A DNA stretch of 64,000 bases from an uncultured Rhodospirillaceae bacterium. GTDB lineage: Bacteria > Pseudomonadota > Alphaproteobacteria > SP197. Both the position numbers and the translations under genes were made by a program. Shown here in pieces: positions 17,579 through 28,447 of the stretch. The stretch's first letter is position 1. Every line of letters begins with the position of its first letter. Where the stretch lies: NCBI GenBank assembly GCA_937880925.1, contig CALGGB010000065.1, positions 6,004-70,003 of the forward strand, given 5' to 3'. Below the pieces are notes generated by a model. It did not search any database. It saw only the letters and a program-made list of their open reading frames with translations, and was not told where the DNA came from.

Positions 17579-18541
17579 TCAATCCCCGGCCAAGGCAGCC
17601 TGGAGCAGAGCCTGGGCTGCTGCATCCAGGTCCAGTTCGCCGGTATCGATGCGCGCGAGCAGGCGATCGGCGACGGCGCCGTCCAGCGCGGCAAGACGCA
17701 TGCGGGCAAAACGCTCGGCTTCGCCCAGCAGACGGCGGCGGCGGCGCTGACGGGCGCGCTCGCCTGATTGCACGTCATGGCCGGCGGCCAGGGCGGCGGC
17801 GGCATCGGCAAGTGCCGGTACACCGCGCCCCGACAGCGCGGCGGTCGTGAGCACCCGTGGCGGCGCAGCGGCGTAGGATGCCGCGCTGCGCAGGGCCGCT
17901 TCGGTCGCGGCAGCCTGGGGCAGGTCGGCCTTGTTGACGACGATCAGGTCGGCGATTTCCAGAATGCCGGCCTTGGCCGCCTGCACGTCGTCGCCGGCGC
18001 CGGGCGCCCAGACAACGATGCGGACATCGGCCAGTTCGGCGATCTCGATCTCGCTCTGGCCGACGCCGACCGTCTCGACCACCACGACATCGCGGCCCGA
18101 TGACGCCATGACATCGGCCACCAGGGCGGCATTGCGCGCCAGGCCGCCCAGATGGCCGCGCGAGGCCAGGCTGCGGACAAACACTCCGGCGTCGCCGGCA
18201 TGGCGGCTCATGCGGATTCGGTCCCCCAGCAGCGCGCCGCCGGTGAGCGGGCTGGATGGGTCAACCGCCAGAACGGCAACGGTGAGACCCCGGCTGCGCA
18301 GCTCACCGACATAGGCGCCGACCAGCGTGGACTTGCCGGCACCGGGCGCACCGGTGATGCCCACGACCATGGCGCGGGCCGGGGCAGCGCGCGCGGCGGC
18401 CAGCACGGCAGCGGCAAACGGGCCGTCGTTCTCGACCTCCGTGACGGCACGGGCCAGGGCCGCACGCTCGCCGCCAAGGAAGGCCGCAAGCCAGGGAGGG
18501 GCGGAAGGGTTCGGATTTGTCGCCATCAGGGCCGCGAGCAT
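17579..18541 (-). CDS. meaB: Methylmalonyl-CoA mutase-associated GTPase MeaB (ArgK family)
   Basis: P-loop GITGAPGAGKSTL, VETVGVGQSE, NKADL. The ORF-track entry 17579-18904 carries a spurious 121-aa N-terminal extension; the start is taken at MLAALMATNP (18541). Confidence 0.8.
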   Translation of the reverse strand: MLAALMATNPNPSAPPWLAAFLGGERAALARAVTEVENDGPFAAAVLAAARAAPARAMVVGITGAPGAGKSTLVGAYVGELRSRGLTVAVLAVDPSSPLTGGALLGDRIRMSRHAGDAGVFVRSLASRGHLGGLARNAALVADVMASSGRDVVVVETVGVGQSEIEIAELADVRIVVWAPGAGDDVQAAKAGILEIADLIVVNKADLPQAAATEAALRSAASYAAAPPRVLTTAALSGRGVPALADAAAALAAGHDVQSGERARQRRRRRLLGEAERFARMRLAALDGAVADRLLARIDTGELDLDAAAQALLQAALAGD

Positions 18542-18566
18542 ACGCAGGCGACGCGCCCCGGCAAGC

Positions 18567-19676
18567 GTGCTCGTCTTGAATGGCGCCCCGCTTCGACGCA
18601 CGATCCCGACCGTGGACAGCGCAAACGCCTTGGAACTCCAGTACCTGGCCGGCGCCGACGGCCGTTCGGCCCCGGTGGGCGATGTCACGTTCACCGTCCC
18701 GGCAGGCAGCAGCCTTGCGGTGCTGGGCCCGCCGCAATCGGGCAAGACCTCGCTGCTGCGCCTGATCGCCGGTTTCGGCAGCACGGTCGGCGGCCGCGTG
18801 CTGTTCAACGGCCACGACCTTGCCCGCGTGTCGCCGCACAAAAGACCTTTCAGTTTCCTGGGCAGCCAGGATGCCCTGTTCCCGCACATGAACGTGGCCG
18901 GCAATGTCGCCTATGGCCTCAAAGCCCAGGGTCTGGGGCGCAGCGAATCGCAGCGCCGCGTCGCCGATGCCCTGGACCTGGTCGGCGCCGCACATCTGGA
19001 GAGCGCTGCGCCCGAGGCGCTGACCCGTGCCGAGCGCCAGAAGGTGGCGCTCGCCCGCTCACTCGCCATCGAACCACTGGTCCTGCTCCTCGACGAGGCG
19101 CTGACCGCGCTGGATCCCCTGGAGGCCGCACGGGTGATGACGATCCTGTCGCGCCTGCAGCGCAAGGTGGCGCTGACCCTGATCTTCAGCACCACCGACG
19201 GCATGGCCGCCATGGCGCAGGCCGATGCCATCGCGGTGCTGTCGGCCGGCCGGATGATTCAATGGGGCGAGCCCGGTGAACTCTATGACCGACCGGACCA
19301 TGCGGTGACCGCGCGCCTGACCGGGCCGGTCAATCTGCTGGCAGGACGGGCGAGCCGCCATGGCATCGAGATCGCGGGCCTGGGCGACATCACCGCCCAC
19401 GGCAACGTCGCCCAGGGCAACATGGCCGCACTGGCCCTGCGCCCGGACCGCATCGACCTGCATCTCAAGGCGCCCGAGGGCTTTGCCTTCGAGGGCGAGA
19501 TCGAACGCGTGGCCTTTTCAAACCTGGGGCTGACCGCCCATATCCAGCTTGCGGGGCCGGGCGAGCGGATCGCCGCTCGGGTCGATACCCGGCGGCTGCA
19601 AAGCGACGACTTGCCCGAAGGGCGCCGAGTGTGGTGTACCTTTGCGCCAGACGACGCCCGCCTCGTGCGGGTATGA
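18567..19676 (+). CDS. Orphan ABC-type ATP-binding protein with a C-terminal TOBE-like domain; signature motif and H-loop degenerate
   Basis: Walker A GPPQSGKTS, Q-loop FLGSQD, Walker B LVLLLDEALTALD. The signature reads LTRAERQ instead of LSGGQ. The H-loop region reads IFSTTDG, with no His. GTG start at 18567 (or 18612). No permease gene adjacent. Confidence 0.6.
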   Translation: MLVLNGAPLRRTIPTVDSANALELQYLAGADGRSAPVGDVTFTVPAGSSLAVLGPPQSGKTSLLRLIAGFGSTVGGRVLFNGHDLARVSPHKRPFSFLGSQDALFPHMNVAGNVAYGLKAQGLGRSESQRRVADALDLVGAAHLESAAPEALTRAERQKVALARSLAIEPLVLLLDEALTALDPLEAARVMTILSRLQRKVALTLIFSTTDGMAAMAQADAIAVLSAGRMIQWGEPGELYDRPDHAVTARLTGPVNLLAGRASRHGIEIAGLGDITAHGNVAQGNMAALALRPDRIDLHLKAPEGFAFEGEIERVAFSNLGLTAHIQLAGPGERIAARVDTRRLQSDDLPEGRRVWCTFAPDDARLVRV

Positions 19677-21396: not shown

Positions 21397-21777
21397 TCAG
21401 GGCGTCCCGGCCTCGGCATCGACATCCGGCGATAGCGGCCCGGCAGGCAGGGGCAGGCCGAGCGCAGCAGTCGTGCCCAGAACGGTCTGGTAGATCAGGC
21501 CGCCTCCTGGCCGGTCCATCTCCCCGGCCTCGTAGATGAAGGCAAAGGTCTCCTCTGCCTGCTCGGGCGTGACCACGACCGACAGCGTATCGACCTCGAT
21601 CATGTCACGGGCCGCGACGGTGGCCAGCATCCCGGCGCCGCGGCCATGGCTGTAGTGGAACGCGTCGATGCCCAGCGAGGCGTGCAACGCCTCGGCAATG
21701 TCGTGGGCGTGTCCGCGGCGCAGGTAGGCGACGATCAACCGCGGAGCGGCGCCATCGACTTCGGCTTCGCTGCTCAC
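21397..21777 (-). CDS. P-II-like (GlnB-like fold) signalling protein, paralog 2
   Basis: 126 aa. beta-alpha-beta core RLIVAYLRRGHAHDIAEALHASLGIDAFHYSHGRGAG and a Gly-rich B-loop-like DRPGGGLIYQTVL. No T-loop Tyr. Its start overlaps the stop of the upstream P-II-like gene (ATGA). Confidence 0.6.
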   Translation of the reverse strand: MSSEAEVDGAAPRLIVAYLRRGHAHDIAEALHASLGIDAFHYSHGRGAGMLATVAARDMIEVDTLSVVVTPEQAEETFAFIYEAGEMDRPGGGLIYQTVLGTTAALGLPLPAGPLSPDVDAEAGTP

Positions 21778-22157
21778 CGGAAGAACCTGCCGCGGCCCTG
21801 GCGCTCGCCGACACGCTCCAGAACATCGTGGGGGATGTAGGTCGCCGCCTTCTCCAGCGGCGTGACATACATGATGCCCATGCCCGGCGTGTCCAGGTTG
21901 CCCGCCAGGTACATGGCGTTGAAGACGCGGTCGACCTGTTCGCTGGAGACGACGATGTTGACGATCTCCTTCTCGACCTCGACCGCAACGCCCAGAATGC
22001 CCAGGCGCTCACGCACGCCAGAACCCCGGCCGAAATGCACCGTGGCCCCCTGGGCGCCGGCACTCTGGGCGGCCGCGACGATGGCGTCGGCATTGCCGCG
22101 CTGCACGATACAGGTGATCAGCGCGACATCGGTCAACACGACGATCTCGCGGCTCAT
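21774..22157 (-). CDS. P-II-like (GlnB-like fold) signalling protein, paralog 1
   Basis: 127 aa from MSREIVVLTDVALITCIVQRGNADAIVAAAQSAGAQGATVHFGRGSG... Aligns with the GlnB architecture (double beta-alpha-beta, T-loop region GRGSGVRERLG, B-loop-like TPGMGIMYV). Its start overlaps the DUF1538 stop (ATGA at 22154-22157). Confidence 0.65.
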   Translation of the reverse strand: MSREIVVLTDVALITCIVQRGNADAIVAAAQSAGAQGATVHFGRGSGVRERLGILGVAVEVEKEIVNIVVSSEQVDRVFNAMYLAGNLDTPGMGIMYVTPLEKAATYIPHDVLERVGERQGRGRFFR

Positions 22158-23941
22158 GCCGAAACCTCCAGGGCATTGGCAGACCGCGCCCTGCGCGCGG
22201 CCACAAGATGCAGGATCAGACCATAACCCAGAACCGCCAGGATCGGGCAGATCGAGGCCATCGAAAGGATGCCGAAGCCTTCGACCACTTCCATCGCATT
22301 GCCGAAACCCAGCCCCATGGCCAGCACCAGGGGCACGGTCACCGGGCCGGTCGTCACCCCGGCGCAATCCCAGGCAATGTTGACGAACTCCTCCGAGGAG
22401 ACCGCCGTCAGCACCAGGCCGGCGATGTAAAGCGGCACCAGAAGCCAGCCCAGCGGCAGATCAAAGGTGATCTTGGCCACCCCCAGCGCCAGGCCGAAGG
22501 CGACGCCGACGGCGACCACGATCATCAGCGCGCGCTTGCGGAAGGCGCCGTTGGTCAGGCTCTCCACCGTCATGCCCAGGGCGTTGAGCGCGGGCTCGGC
22601 CAGCGTCGCACCGAAACCCAGGAACCAAGCAAAGACCAGGGCAAGGGATACGCCCAGCACATAGGGGTAAAGCGGCGAGCCCACGATCGCCTCGATCGCG
22701 GTGAAGGCACCGGGCACGATACCGCCCGAAAGCGCCCCCAGGCGCGACAGGCCGAAGGTGAGCCCGATGTTGAAGATGATCATGCCGAGAAGGGCAAGAC
22801 CAATGCCGTAGGCCGTGATTCCGGCCCGGGGCATGCGTTCGCGCAACAGAACGCGCATGACCAGCCACAGGAAGGCGACCAGCGGCAGAATTGCCCGCAG
22901 GCCGGCCAGGGTCTCGGCCGCGGGCGTAAGCGAGAGCGGGCCCGGCTCGGCCGAAAGGGCCACCTCGCGGGCCGCAGCTGCGATCTCGCCCGGCGTTGTG
23001 GTGGCGGCCAGCACCAGCGCCAGGAGCAGCACGCCCAGCACCGGAAGGAGCGAGGCCAGCGTGACGATCCCAAAGCCAGAGAGCGAGGACTGGCTCTTGC
23101 CTGCCGCAGCCGACATGCCGATACCCAGGGCCAGGACCAGGGGCACCGTAATCGGCCCCGTGGTCACTGCCCCGCAGTCCCAGGCAAGGCCCAGCACGCT
23201 GGAGAGATCCGCATCACTCATGAAGTAGAGCGTCAGCAACAGCGTCGGGGCCACCGCCACGTAGATGAAGGGCTTCAGGCTCCAGCCGTAGAGGAAGCGC
23301 ACGGTACCCAGGACTGCCGCAATGCCCACGCCCGCACCCACGACCAGCACCAGGGCATCGCTCCAGCCGTTGAGCAGGGTGTGAAGATAGGGCGCGCGGC
23401 TGACATCGACGATGGAGCCCGCAGCCTGCAGTGCGCCGATCGCCGGCTCGGCGAAGGTCGCCCCGATCCCCAGGATGAAGGCGACGATCAGCACCACAGG
23501 CAGGCGCTGGCGCTGGGGCAGCCGGTTCCCGATCGCTTCCGCGAAGGGCATCAGGCCCAGGTTGAGGCCTTCCATGAACAGCATCAGGCCCAGGATCACC
23601 GCCAGCAGGCCCGACATGATGGCAACCTCGTCGCTGAGCGGCTGGCGCAGGACGATGAGCTGGAAGAGGACAAAGTAGATCGCGAGCGGCACGACGGCGC
23701 GCGCCTGGGCCCAGAAGCGCACGCTGATGTAGGGGCTGAGCAGACGGTAAACGTCGATGCCGCGCAGATTGACGCGCCCCGGTCGATAGGGTTCGGGCTC
23801 GCCCCGGCCATCGGTGGCGCGCGAACGGGTCAGTTCGTCGAAGCTGATGCGCCGCTGGCGCACGGTGGCTTCGCGCTGGAAATCTCCGAATCTCAACTGC
23901 ACCACGCCGAGAATCCCCCGCGCCCGGCCAGAATGGCCCAC
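22154..23941 (-). CDS. Polytopic membrane protein made of two tandem DUF1538-like repeats
   Basis: 595 aa with about 12 predicted TM helices. An internal duplication is visible: ...LAWDCGAVTTGPITVPLVLALGIG... and ...IAWDCAGVTTGPVTVPLVLAMGLGFG... The first 60 aa are non-hydrophobic, so the true start may be an internal GTG near VNLRGIDVYR. Confidence 0.7.
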   Translation of the reverse strand: MGHSGRARGILGVVQLRFGDFQREATVRQRRISFDELTRSRATDGRGEPEPYRPGRVNLRGIDVYRLLSPYISVRFWAQARAVVPLAIYFVLFQLIVLRQPLSDEVAIMSGLLAVILGLMLFMEGLNLGLMPFAEAIGNRLPQRQRLPVVLIVAFILGIGATFAEPAIGALQAAGSIVDVSRAPYLHTLLNGWSDALVLVVGAGVGIAAVLGTVRFLYGWSLKPFIYVAVAPTLLLTLYFMSDADLSSVLGLAWDCGAVTTGPITVPLVLALGIGMSAAAGKSQSSLSGFGIVTLASLLPVLGVLLLALVLAATTTPGEIAAAAREVALSAEPGPLSLTPAAETLAGLRAILPLVAFLWLVMRVLLRERMPRAGITAYGIGLALLGMIIFNIGLTFGLSRLGALSGGIVPGAFTAIEAIVGSPLYPYVLGVSLALVFAWFLGFGATLAEPALNALGMTVESLTNGAFRKRALMIVVAVGVAFGLALGVAKITFDLPLGWLLVPLYIAGLVLTAVSSEEFVNIAWDCAGVTTGPVTVPLVLAMGLGFGNAMEVVEGFGILSMASICPILAVLGYGLILHLVAARRARSANALEVSA

Positions 23942-24383
23942 GAACTACACTGGCGTCTTTTACGATACTTGGGCCATACGCGCGATAGACCGCCATCCGG
24001 CCCACCGTGAGGCGGGAAAGGTGTGAAATGGATTACGGCGGACATGGGCGGACTGGGGCAGGCTCAAAAACAAGACCCTGCGCCACCGATCTTCAAAGGG
24101 TAGGACTTTCGCCCTGGGGGGTCCCAACGAAGACCGGCGAACGCAGGGCCGACCGCGTCTGTTAGGAAGCGGTCAACCACCCCGTTATGGCCGGACGATG
24201 CCGGCCGCACGGTGGGTCTGGTGTGTATATAGGCCCATGACCTGACAGCCCCAGTGACAGAGGTCACTTGGGCGAGGCCATTCGGGGGTCCACGTAATGG
24301 CCATCACAGCCAGGGGCGCCATGGCTTCTGCCCATGGCGCGATGCCGCTATGGTGGGCGCCGGACGCGTATCGGAGCCCTGCC

Positions 24384-26523: not shown

Positions 26524-27396
26524 TCAACCGCCGCGCGCGAGCTGCGCCTCGCGGCGGAAGACGTAGATGCCCGCGCCGGCGATCACAGCCGCGCCGACAA
26601 AGGTCCAGATATCGGGCCAGTCGCCGAAGGCGATCCAGCCCGCGATCACCGCCAGGACGATCTCGGCATAGGTAAAGGGCGCCAGGGTGCCGATGGGGGC
26701 ATAACGAAACGCCAGGATCAGGCAGATGTGGCCCAGCGAGGCCAGGCCGCCGATCGTCACCAGCATGGCCCAGTCAAGCGCGCCGGGCGGCTGCCAGATG
26801 CCGGGCACCGCCACCACCACGATACAGGACACCACGGCGCCGAAGACATTGGTCCACACCAGGCTGGTATCGGCGCTGTCGCTGCGCACCACCAGCCGCG
26901 TCGCGACATTGTAGCCCGCCATCATGACCGCCGCGGCCAGAGGCAGGAAATAGGCCCAGTGACGGTCCTCGAAGCCCGGCCGCAGAACAATCAGCATGCC
27001 GATGAAACCGATGGCGATGGCGCTCCAGCGGCGCAGGCCCACCTTTTCGCCCAGCACGGGAATCGACAGCGCCGTGCCGATCAGCGGCGCGATGAAGCCG
27101 ATGGCGATGGCGTCGGCCAGCGGCATGAAGGTGATCGCCGTGAAGAACACCGCCGTGGTCGAGACCAGCAGCACCGAGCGCAAAAGCTGCAGCCAGGGCC
27201 GCTTGGTGCGCAGGGAAACCCGCAGACGCCGCGGTGGCACCATGAGCGGCAGCAGCAGCACCGAAAAGAAGTAACGCCCCCAAACGACCTGCAGCGGATC
27301 GAGCACGCCACCCATGAACTTCGCCACGGTATCCAGGCTGACGAAGCAGAGGATCGCGAGCAGGACAAAGAGGATGCCGCGCGGAATGTTGTCCAA
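26524..27396 (-). CDS. DMT-superfamily (EamA-like) transporter, paralog A
   Basis: 10 TM helices. About 70% identical to the adjacent paralog. The ORF-track ATG at 27576 overlaps the upstream paralog by 120 bp. The real start is probably a TTG near LDNIPRG (about 27396). Start uncertain. Confidence 0.6.
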   Translation of the reverse strand: MDNIPRGILFVLLAILCFVSLDTVAKFMGGVLDPLQVVWGRYFFSVLLLPLMVPPRRLRVSLRTKRPWLQLLRSVLLVSTTAVFFTAITFMPLADAIAIGFIAPLIGTALSIPVLGEKVGLRRWSAIAIGFIGMLIVLRPGFEDRHWAYFLPLAAAVMMAGYNVATRLVVRSDSADTSLVWTNVFGAVVSCIVVVAVPGIWQPPGALDWAMLVTIGGLASLGHICLILAFRYAPIGTLAPFTYAEIVLAVIAGWIAFGDWPDIWTFVGAAVIAGAGIYVFRREAQLARGG

Positions 27397-27454
27397 GGCC
27401 GGATCCGGTTCGATATGGAGGAATGCGTCGCGTCGTTGCGGGCGGGGGGTTCTA

Positions 27455-28447
27455 TCACGTCCGCGGCGGCGCGGAAGACAGGCTGGCGCGTGCCTGGCGC
27501 GCCAGGATGGCCTCGCGTCGGAAGACGTAGATACCCGAACCGGCGACCACGGCGGCCCCGACCAGGGTCCAGGCATCCGGCCAGTCGTTGAAGATCAGCC
27601 AGCCCGCGATCACCGCCAGCACGATGTGCCCGAAGGTGAAGGGCGCCAGAGTCGAGACCGGGGCACTGCGATAGGCCAGGATCAGGCAGAAGTGCCCGAT
27701 CGAGCCGAAGGCGCCGATCGCCACCAGCAGGCCCCACTGGATGGCATCGGGCGCCGTCCAGACGCCGGGCAGCGACACGATCGCGATGGTCGAGACCACG
27801 GCGCCGAAGACATTGGTGTAGGCAAGGCTGGTGTCGGCGGTGTCGTGGCGCACGACCAGGCGGGTACAGACGTTGTAGGTCGCCATGAGCGTGGCAACGA
27901 TAAGCGGCAGGAAATAGGCCCAGTGGCGCTCCTCGAAGCCCGGCCGCAGCACGATCATGATGCCGACGAAGCCGATGGCGATGGCGCTCCAGCGCCGCAC
28001 GCCCACCTTCTCGCCCAGGATGGGGATGGCGAGTGCGGTGGCCAGCAGGGGCGAGACGAAGCCAATGGCGATGGCGTCGGCGAGCGGGATGTACTTGATC
28101 GCCGTGAAGAAGGTGGCGGTCGTTGCCGCCAGAAGGGCGCCGCGCAGCAGTTGCAGCCAGGGCCGCTTGCTGCGCACGGCCAGACGAAGGCGGCGCGGCC
28201 CCATCAGGAAGGGCAGCAGGAGAACCGAGAAGATATAGCGCCCCCAGACCACCTGCATCGGGTCGAGCGAACCGGTCATGAACTTCGCCGTGGAATCGAG
28301 TGAGACGAAGAAGACGATGGACAGCAGGACGAAGGTGATGCCGCGGGGGATGTTGTCCAAGAATGGTCCGATCCGGTGGGAACCCTCTGCTTCTAGTGCG
28401 GATCGCCAAGGGATGAAACCGATACCTTGGGCGCCAAAGATCGCCAT
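27455..28447 (-). CDS. DMT-superfamily (EamA-like) transporter, paralog B
   Basis: 330 aa. Same architecture and conserved blocks as paralog A (LDNIPRGI, RPWLQLLR, WSAIAIGF, GIYVFRREA). Confidence 0.7.
   Translation of the reverse strand: MAIFGAQGIGFIPWRSALEAEGSHRIGPFLDNIPRGITFVLLSIVFFVSLDSTAKFMTGSLDPMQVVWGRYIFSVLLLPFLMGPRRLRLAVRSKRPWLQLLRGALLAATTATFFTAIKYIPLADAIAIGFVSPLLATALAIPILGEKVGVRRWSAIAIGFVGIMIVLRPGFEERHWAYFLPLIVATLMATYNVCTRLVVRHDTADTSLAYTNVFGAVVSTIAIVSLPGVWTAPDAIQWGLLVAIGAFGSIGHFCLILAYRSAPVSTLAPFTFGHIVLAVIAGWLIFNDWPDAWTLVGAAVVAGSGIYVFRREAILARQARASLSSAPPRT

Follow-up and report, generated by a model that had tools for sequence, protein, structure and literature searches.

Results

Three overlapping genes encode a fused DUF1538 membrane protein and two P-II-like proteins

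Here we describe a three-gene operon in a 64,000-nucleotide stretch of DNA from an uncultured Rhodospirillaceae bacterium (contig CALGGB010000065.1, positions 6,004 to 70,003; the entire stretch is referred to as the window). The minus strand of the window carries open reading frames (ORFs) at 22154-23941 (595 amino acids, GTG start), 21774-22157 (127 amino acids, ATG start), and 21397-21777 (126 amino acids, GTG start), and the JGI gene calls for the source metagenome, in which the window is part of an 89-kb contig, agree with them at 595, 127, and 126 amino acids. The first gene encodes a membrane protein in which two DUF1538 units are fused. The second, which we name PII-a, encodes the conserved P-II-like partner of DUF1538 transporters, as identified by matches to the Pfam P-II model and to profiles of PDB structures. 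The third, PII-b, encodes a fast-evolving and apparently degenerate paralogue of PII-a, as judged by BLASTP, hhalign, and an AlphaFold2 model. The three genes form a self-contained operon. A preliminary description of this DNA, made from the sequence alone, had proposed a tandem DUF1538 protein followed by two paralogues of P-II fold without the uridylylation tyrosine, and Pfam, BLASTP, hhalign, and the structural model agree on this anatomy.

The 595 amino acids of the membrane protein correspond to the longest ORF. Its close homologues begin with MVQLRFGDF (consensus M.QLRFGDF), and upstream of a GTG at 23905, 12 codons inside the ORF, lies a Shine-Dalgarno-like GGGGGA. Together these make a product of 583 amino acids, initiated at this GTG, probable.

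At the first junction (22154-22157, minus strand), which reads ...GGC ATG A..., the stop codon of the membrane gene overlaps the start codon of PII-a in an ATGA, with the ATG at 22157-22155 and the TGA at 22156-22154. A GGAGG Shine-Dalgarno sequence at 22165-22169 lies 8 nucleotides (nt) upstream of the PII-a ATG. At the second junction (21774-21777, minus strand), which reads ...CGG TGA..., the stop codon of PII-a overlaps the GTG start of PII-b. Both junctions had been described as ATGA; both are indeed 4-nt overlaps, but the second is a GTGA because the third gene starts with GTG. Among related loci, the junction between the membrane gene and PII-a is a 4-nt overlap in 51 of 75, and the distance from PII-a to PII-b ranges from -11 to +42 nt. 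The 4-nt overlap shows translational coupling, but the fixed stoichiometry that was proposed earlier reads more into the overlap than it shows.

DUF1538 genes are linked to P-II-like genes in every subfamily sampled

For the subfamily of long fused proteins (about 590 amino acids), we sampled 80 genome loci, 74 of which had room for further genes downstream, and detected P-II genes automatically. PII-a was present in 71 of these 74 loci and PII-b in 67. Most of the misses that were inspected are not real absences, but result from a masking run of N (L058), a frameshift (L018), or a third gene so divergent that the search did not score it (L067). Runs of N break PII-a in L058 (7749-9518) and a neighboring gene in L067 (8744-9478); in L058 the mask also yields an artefactual ORF of 589 amino acids, in which the start of PII-a is joined to a downstream gene.

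The linkage extends to DUF1538 proteins encoded as split pairs, of which we sampled 80 metagenome loci, 69 with room downstream. A single PII-a-like gene was found in 68 of the 69, and both split pairs observed on alphaproteobacterial plasmids (2/2) also have one P-II gene. A further form comes from clostridial records in a plasmid collection, in which a fused DUF1538 protein of about 500 amino acids is followed in all four cases by a tandem-P-II fusion (L081:4983-5651, L084:5470-6144, L086:4482-5135, and L087:4401-5318). These tandem proteins comprise 217-224 amino acids (the longest ORF at L087 is 305), with a divergent N-terminal domain and a PII-a-like C-terminal domain, an order opposite to that of the two P-II genes of the window. 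The P-II partners of both the split-type and the clostridial proteins match the PII-a profile.

In the roughly 150 loci examined, which come from many phyla, DUF1538 and P-II genes are linked almost without exception, and the linkage held in every subfamily sampled. The conserved co-occurrence of the two families, on which the preliminary description made its reading depend, is strongly supported. PII-b is restricted to the fused subfamily of about 590 amino acids. The module moves as a self-contained unit, also on plasmids.

The only recurrent neighbor of the triad, at 14 of the 80 fused-long loci, is a CPA1 Na+/H+ exchanger of about 828 amino acids with a C-terminal cyclic nucleotide-binding (cNMP-binding) domain (L007:3309-5795, minus strand; also L008, L010, L011, L013, L018, L019, L021, L022, L029, L038, L039, L046, and L078). 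In six of these loci the exchanger gene is on the strand of the triad and adjoins it directly or almost so. In three further loci, adenylate or guanylate cyclase genes flank the triad. The cNMP-binding domain of the exchanger and the cyclase neighbors hint at a cyclic-nucleotide theme. A Pfam scan of the 122 other flanking proteins returned nothing recurrent and no carbon- or nitrogen-assimilation genes: carbonic anhydrase, RuBisCO, and carboxysome genes were absent from this set, and amtB, glnA, and nif genes were found neither in it nor near the window operon.

Predicted inverted-repeat architecture of the DUF1538 protein

The membrane protein matches Pfam DUF1538 (PF07556) in two stretches with 341.1 bits (cut-off 22.6, E 2.5e-102), which confirms the family assignment proposed earlier, and its two repeats are 34% identical to one another (E 3e-24). 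The NCBIfam model of UmpA aligns to residues 80-310 (207.6 bits, cut-off 490) and that of UmpB to residues 347-584 (165 bits, cut-off 500). By the NCBIfam cut-offs, the window protein is thus a member of the DUF1538 family and not an UmpA/UmpB equivalog; the same two models score it above a split pair from Methylocystis.

Homologues of 57-91% identity occur in many phyla. Among the 80 loci encoding the fused form of about 590 amino acids, which belong to Alpha-, Gamma-, and Zetaproteobacteria, Nitrospinota, Bdellovibrionota, Planctomycetota, Elusimicrobiota, Campylobacterota, and SAR324, the best-segment identity to the window protein is 57-72%. A HMMER scan of 1.84 billion representative sequences identified 2974 relatives, 490 of them with E <= 1e-30. 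Some DUF1538 proteins, noted in eight representatives of 826-991 amino acids (P0310, P0321, P0359, P0346, P0323, P0302, P0328, and P0284), have N-terminal or linker extensions of 150-300 or more residues without a Pfam match. A search of long representatives (770-990 amino acids) for extra domains found DUF1538 alone.

Hydropathy analysis revealed 7+7 hydrophobic segments. From hydropathy and the distribution of lysine plus arginine (K+R), repeat 1 (residues ~60-315; 22997-23764, minus strand) is predicted to be oriented N-in/C-out and repeat 2 (residues ~341-595; 22157-22921, minus strand) N-out/C-in, each with seven segments. In repeat 1, even loops contain 8 K+R and odd loops 3, and in repeat 2 the bias is reversed (2 versus 9). 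The K+R loop biases of unit A and unit B are likewise opposite in all 67 of the split DUF1538 pairs that were compared (67/67; L088-L167). Taken together, the reversal within the window protein and in the split pairs makes the DUF1538 family look like an antiparallel heterodimer, fused in the window into a 7+7 inverted repeat.

Two motifs recur in each half. The first is FAEPAIGAL at residues 163-171 in repeat 1 (23429-23455, minus strand), which contains E165 and was recognized by its conservation and a helix break at 163/166 in the AlphaFold2 model. Its counterpart in repeat 2, supported by conservation and the model, is LAEPALNAL at residues 447-455 (22577-22603, minus strand), with E449. 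The second motif is the AWDCGAVTTGPITVPLVLALGIG block at residues 253-275 (23117-23185, minus strand), which contains D255 and is modeled as a helix, a break at TTGP (260-264), and a further helix. The corresponding AWDCAGVTTGPVTVPLVLAMGLG block at residues 523-545 (22307-22375, minus strand), again identified from conservation and the model, contains D525. The two homologous halves with their AWDC..VTTGP blocks had been recognized in the preliminary description. Both AWDC..VTTGP.TVPLVLA.G.G blocks are invariant or nearly so among homologues, with D255, T260, T261, G262, and P263 invariant in 66 of them. The Glu and Pro of AEP are invariant in the nine DUF1538 repeat units compared, fused or split, as is the Asp of A-x-D..TTGP in all repeat units compared. 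In the AlphaFold2 model of the membrane protein (predicted local distance difference test [pLDDT] 75.8, predicted template modeling score 0.77), both motifs are located at helix-break-helix elements, and the predicted fold found no match among solved structures.

Residues 14-60 of the membrane protein (~23762-23902) constitute an N-terminal extension predicted to be cytoplasmic, with the pattern RFGDF.RE...Q..IS...L...R..LR.ID.YRLL.PY. This extension is kept in the fused homologues of about 590 amino acids that were compared and is missing in the shorter clostridial fused forms. The subfamily that has it is also the subfamily that has PII-b. The extension, which is modeled with low confidence, could be a docking element.

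The earlier suggestion that one P-II protein might serve each half of the membrane protein is disfavored and we reject it, because split pairs, with their two oppositely oriented halves, carry a single P-II gene (68/69). A hetero-oligomer of PII-a and PII-b, which the preliminary description also considered, may form, since the clostridial tandem-P-II fusions make joint action of two P-II domains plausible.

PII-a retains the P-II scaffold and has lost canonical ligand-binding residues

PII-a matches the Pfam P-II model (PF00543) with 35.4 bits against a gathering cut-off of 25, and a profile built from 37 PII-a homologues matches archaeal GlnB/GlnK structures across the whole domain (E 8e-6). 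PII-b scores 14.2 bits on the Pfam model, below the cut-off, yet has a GlnB-like fold in its structural model. This AlphaFold2 model (pLDDT 74) shows a beta-alpha-beta-beta-alpha-beta arrangement, and its best Foldseek matches are all GlnB, GlnK, or PII proteins, with a target template modeling score of about 0.7. PII-b is also 33% identical to PII-a by BLASTP (E 8e-12), with an hhalign probability of 96.9%. The only PDB chain matching nearly the whole PII-b domain is 9p1x, without significance (E 0.37); 9p1x is NifI1-like by appearance and was rejected as a DUF1538-associated P-II protein. NCBI and JGI name PII-a "P-II family nitrogen regulator"; for PII-b no Pfam domain is precomputed, and NCBI lists it as "hypothetical." Median identity to the window copy is 69% for PII-a (75 loci) and 33% for PII-b (66 loci).

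For a comparison of individual residues we used an E. coli GlnB sequence as reference, and the GlnB positions given below are to be read against this reference. In alignments with GlnB, the T-loop of PII-a comprises residues ~45-60, GSGVRERLGILGVAVE (21978-22025, minus strand). It is 5 residues shorter than that of GlnB and without Tyr51, and across the fused-long subfamily its residues R49, E50, R51, L52, and G53 hardly vary. The T-loop tyrosine is missing in PII-a, PII-b, and their homologues, in which we found no Tyr51/Ser49 modification site. The DUF1538-associated P-II group keeps the equivalents of G24, G27, T29, G35, G37, K58, G87, G89, and F92 and replaces R38, Q39, K40, K90, R101, and R103, which in PII-a correspond to V48, R49, E50, I95, T106, and I108, respectively. 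Five of the replaced residues, R38, Q39, K90, R101, and R103, are phosphate- and 2-oxoglutarate-binding positions, which are lost in PII-a. In PII-b, the equivalents of G27, T29, and K58 are replaced as well (A39, H41, and D63). With its scaffold kept and its ligand residues lost, PII-a looks like a P-II protein that binds either a non-canonical ligand or a ligand in a non-canonical way. PII-b looks like its degenerate partner. The name "nitrogen regulator" is almost certainly wrong for the DUF1538-associated P-II genes, and we therefore offer a correction to the databases.

Flanking genes and the 5' leader

The genes flanking the operon in the window are all unrelated to it. A Sel1-repeat gene is divergent and a Cupin_3 gene is convergent downstream, and further flanking genes encode a glycosyltransferase, EamA transporters, an ABC ATPase, and MeaB. 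The 5' intergenic leader (23942-24296, minus strand), common to the operon and the divergent Sel1-repeat gene, was examined by Rfam and promoter scans. Rfam gave no match at gathering score in the whole window, and a relaxed-E search of the leader gave chance-level matches only; one match to Fungi_SRP at 24126-24312 (minus strand; 20.7 bits against a gathering score of 65, E 0.0066) was judged to be due to chance. Rfam detected only a tRNA in 28 related loci, and no known riboswitch upstream of any of the 29 loci scanned, the window included, so that no clue to the substrate came from this search. The scan of the leader found no sigma-70 promoter, and terminator-like sites were at the level expected by chance.

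Two EamA paralogues lie in tandem at 26524-27576 and 27455-28447 (both minus strand). Their longest ORFs overlap by about 120 nt, and they look like a tandem duplication in which the start of the downstream gene was probably overcalled. The longest ORFs of the MeaB-like GTPase (17579-18904, minus strand) and the ABC ATPase (18327-19676, plus strand) overlap by about 580 nt on opposite strands, and both starts are probably overcalled in this high-GC sequence; the JGI call for the ABC protein is 369 amino acids.

Discussion

UmpA and UmpB are the only characterized DUF1538 proteins. This pair from Halomonas zhaodongensis was reported in 2017 to be a Na+(Li+,K+)/H+ antiporter (PMC5484666). According to that study the two proteins heterodimerize, antiport was pH dependent in E. 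coli KNabc and everted vesicles, and the pair was active in E. coli from a 4.2-kb clone without room for a P-II gene (PMC5484666). In view of this report, and of the NCBIfam UmpA and UmpB models (NF041627 and NF041628), the earlier view that neither a substrate nor a function had been assigned to DUF1538 has been overtaken. DUF1538 was also ranked among the features of pH adaptation in a machine-learning study (PMC13255231).

Our preferred model, to which we give slightly better than even confidence as a whole, is that the operon encodes a cation/proton antiporter of the UmpAB type together with its own P-II-like sensor in the cytoplasm. We infer its substrate, its ligand, the physical contact between its components, and the direction of regulation. 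According to this model, the membrane protein would consist of an UmpA-like and an UmpB-like unit of seven hydrophobic segments each in opposite orientations, and each unit would contribute two helix-break-helix elements, (F/L)AEPA..AL and AWD..VTTGP.TVP. Ions and protons are likely to bind at the residues predicted to be buried, E165/D255 and E449/D525, and the protein most likely exchanges monovalent cations (Na+/Li+/K+) for H+ in the service of salt and pH homeostasis. PII-a, which adjoins DUF1538 genes in every subfamily sampled, would be the ancestral partner, most likely a P-II-type oligomer that docks on the cytoplasmic face of the transporter. Its short conserved T-loop would gate transport depending on a bound small ligand, probably an adenine nucleotide, not MgATP/2-oxoglutarate bound in the canonical way. 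PII-b probably co-assembles with or stacks on PII-a as a non-sensing adaptor.

Antiport is supported by the homology to UmpA and UmpB, the invariant carboxylates at the helix breaks, the CPA1 neighbor, and the pH-feature study. Since UmpAB catalyzed antiport from a clone without a P-II gene, transport does not need P-II, which fits a regulator. The glycine/Lys58 scaffold of the ligand cleft, kept in PII-a across subfamilies, argues for ligand binding. Several points weigh against this model. The UmpA and UmpB scores of the window protein (207.6 versus 490 and 165 versus 500) make the transfer of a substrate weak, and the activity of UmpAB itself rests on the KNabc complementation and vesicle assays of one laboratory (PMC5484666). 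The confidence of the membrane-protein model is moderate (pLDDT 75.8), and it is not obvious by what geometry P-II trimers would dock on a pseudo-dimeric transporter. Moreover, many carriers of the module are autotrophs (Nitrospina, Zetaproteobacteria, and sulfur oxidizers), which would fit a role in inorganic carbon as well.

An alternative keeps the architecture and changes the substrate: the membrane protein would import bicarbonate, or else some other anion or solute, and be controlled by the P-II-like pair as SbtA is by SbtB. Among operons SbtA-SbtB offers the nearest analogy, many of the organisms with the fused form are chemolithoautotrophs or phototrophs (Nitrospina, Mariprofundaceae, Thiotrichaceae, Chromatiaceae, and a lucinid symbiont), and the UmpA and UmpB scores are well under equivalog level. 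However, the transporter resembles SbtA in neither sequence nor fold, the module is also present in heterotrophs and in gut or anaerobic Clostridia, and the only recurrent neighbor is a Na+/H+ exchanger. None of the 122 flanking proteins is a carbonic anhydrase, a RuBisCO, or a carboxysome protein, and the lack of carbon genes in this set leads us to down-weight bicarbonate transport, which we regard as unlikely.

The P-II-like proteins could also be obligate subunits for structure or assembly instead of ligand-controlled regulators. This would accommodate the near-universal linkage, the translational coupling, the loss of key ligand residues in PII-b, and the conservation of PII-a above that of the membrane protein (median 69% versus 57-72% best-segment identity in the same loci). 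In E. coli, however, antiport was obtained with UmpA and UmpB by themselves, the clone having no room for P-II (PMC5484666). The glycine/Lys58 ligand-cleft scaffold of PII-a is moreover kept in all subfamilies, and we consider a purely structural role improbable.

P-II proteins can have multiple targets, as in GlnK-DraG and the interaction of SbtB with glycogen branching enzyme. It is thus conceivable that the transporter is a membrane anchor or sensor that sequesters PII-a and PII-b and then releases them to unlinked targets, for which PII-b could be the adaptor. No conserved third partner gene is found nearby, however, and the module moves self-contained, plasmids included; we judge this scenario to be a little less probable even than a structural role. 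The reading of the small proteins as ordinary nitrogen regulators of the GlnB/GlnK type, adjacent to DUF1538 by chance, has in its favor the name that NCBI and JGI give to PII-a, but it is effectively refuted by the linkage in about 150 loci across phyla, by flanking genes that include no amtB, glnA, or nif, and by the absence of Tyr51 and of the canonical ATP/2-oxoglutarate residues.

To our knowledge, P-II proteins are among the most widespread signaling proteins, only their partnerships with ammonium and bicarbonate transporters are understood mechanistically, and for many genes annotated as "P-II-like" we know of no role. The kinds of protein to which both components of the module belong were already known, and anyone can see the two genes side by side in an annotated genome. 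Apparently undescribed are the recurrence of the linkage throughout the subfamilies sampled, the progression from one P-II to two and to a tandem P-II, the inverted 7+7 architecture, and the lack of a solved counterpart of the fold. In the open-access literature, to which our search was limited so that the result is absence of evidence, we found no paper on DUF1538/UmpAB or on P-II that links DUF1538 to P-II proteins, and papers on P-II "valve plugs," on genomes with the reductive tricarboxylic acid cycle, and on methanogen fitness do not mention the module.

The module ties P-II signaling to a family whose one studied member is a cation/proton antiporter. In the most far-reaching reading, it would constitute a third ancient P-II-transporter partnership beside AmtB-GlnK and SbtA-SbtB, extending across the DUF1538 family. 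P-II-type control would then reach Na+/K+/H+ homeostasis (pH and salt), acting on a transporter whose 7+7 inverted-repeat fold is without a solved counterpart. PII-a would sense a non-canonical signal such as AMP, cAMP, another nucleotide, or even cations via its invariant E-x-E-K-E and the T-loop Glu, and PII-a and PII-b would form a hetero-oligomeric lid. All of this holding jointly, the family-wide partnership together with cation control, a non-canonical PII-a signal, and the lid, is a tentative proposition that we rate below even. The system lends itself to testing, since it has three genes, its candidate residues are obvious, and an E. coli strain for the assay is established, and the occurrence of one, two, or tandem-fused P-II domains provides a natural series on the coupling of trimeric sensors to pseudo-dimeric transporters.

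Comparison with known systems

In SbtA-SbtB and AmtB-GlnK, the T-loop plugs the cytoplasmic face of the transporter under nucleotide control. In these systems a gene of the P-II superfamily immediately follows that of a secondary transporter or channel and is conserved along with it. The window operon has this arrangement as well, and the conserved co-occurrence makes the analogy drawn in the preliminary description reasonable. However, the window transporter is unrelated to theirs in sequence and predicted fold, and no homology to SbtA or AmtB was found for it. At DUF1538 loci of the fused types, two paralogues or a tandem fusion take the place of the single P-II protein, the DUF1538-linked T-loop is shorter, the ligand residues are unlike those of GlnK, and contact with the transporter is a prediction.

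NifI1 and NifI2 of methanogens and some anaerobes are two divergent tandem P-II paralogues that act as a hetero-oligomer, and their tandem arrangement resembles that of PII-a and PII-b. Their target, by contrast, is nitrogenase and not a transporter, no nif genes are near the window operon, and the homology of the window P-II proteins to NifI1/NifI2 is at the superfamily level only (E 0.005 to 0.4).

The antiparallel SMR pairs of the EbrAB/YdgEF type and their fused descendants, an example of dual-topology evolution, are an architectural analogy only, since they belong to an unrelated family and DUF1538 units are much larger, with seven transmembrane segments each. Like DUF1538 split pairs, they are encoded by adjacent homologous genes with opposite K+R bias, and a fused inverted-repeat version exists.

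UmpAB differs from the window protein in that the units of the latter are fused and have in addition a conserved, predicted cytoplasmic N-terminal extension of about 60 residues, and in that the window protein scores far under the equivalog cut-offs; the UmpAB study did not include P-II partners. Both belong to the same Pfam family, the N-terminal half of the window protein aligns to UmpA and the C-terminal half to UmpB over nearly the full models, and both are composed of two homologous seven-segment units that act together in UmpAB and would do so in the fused protein.

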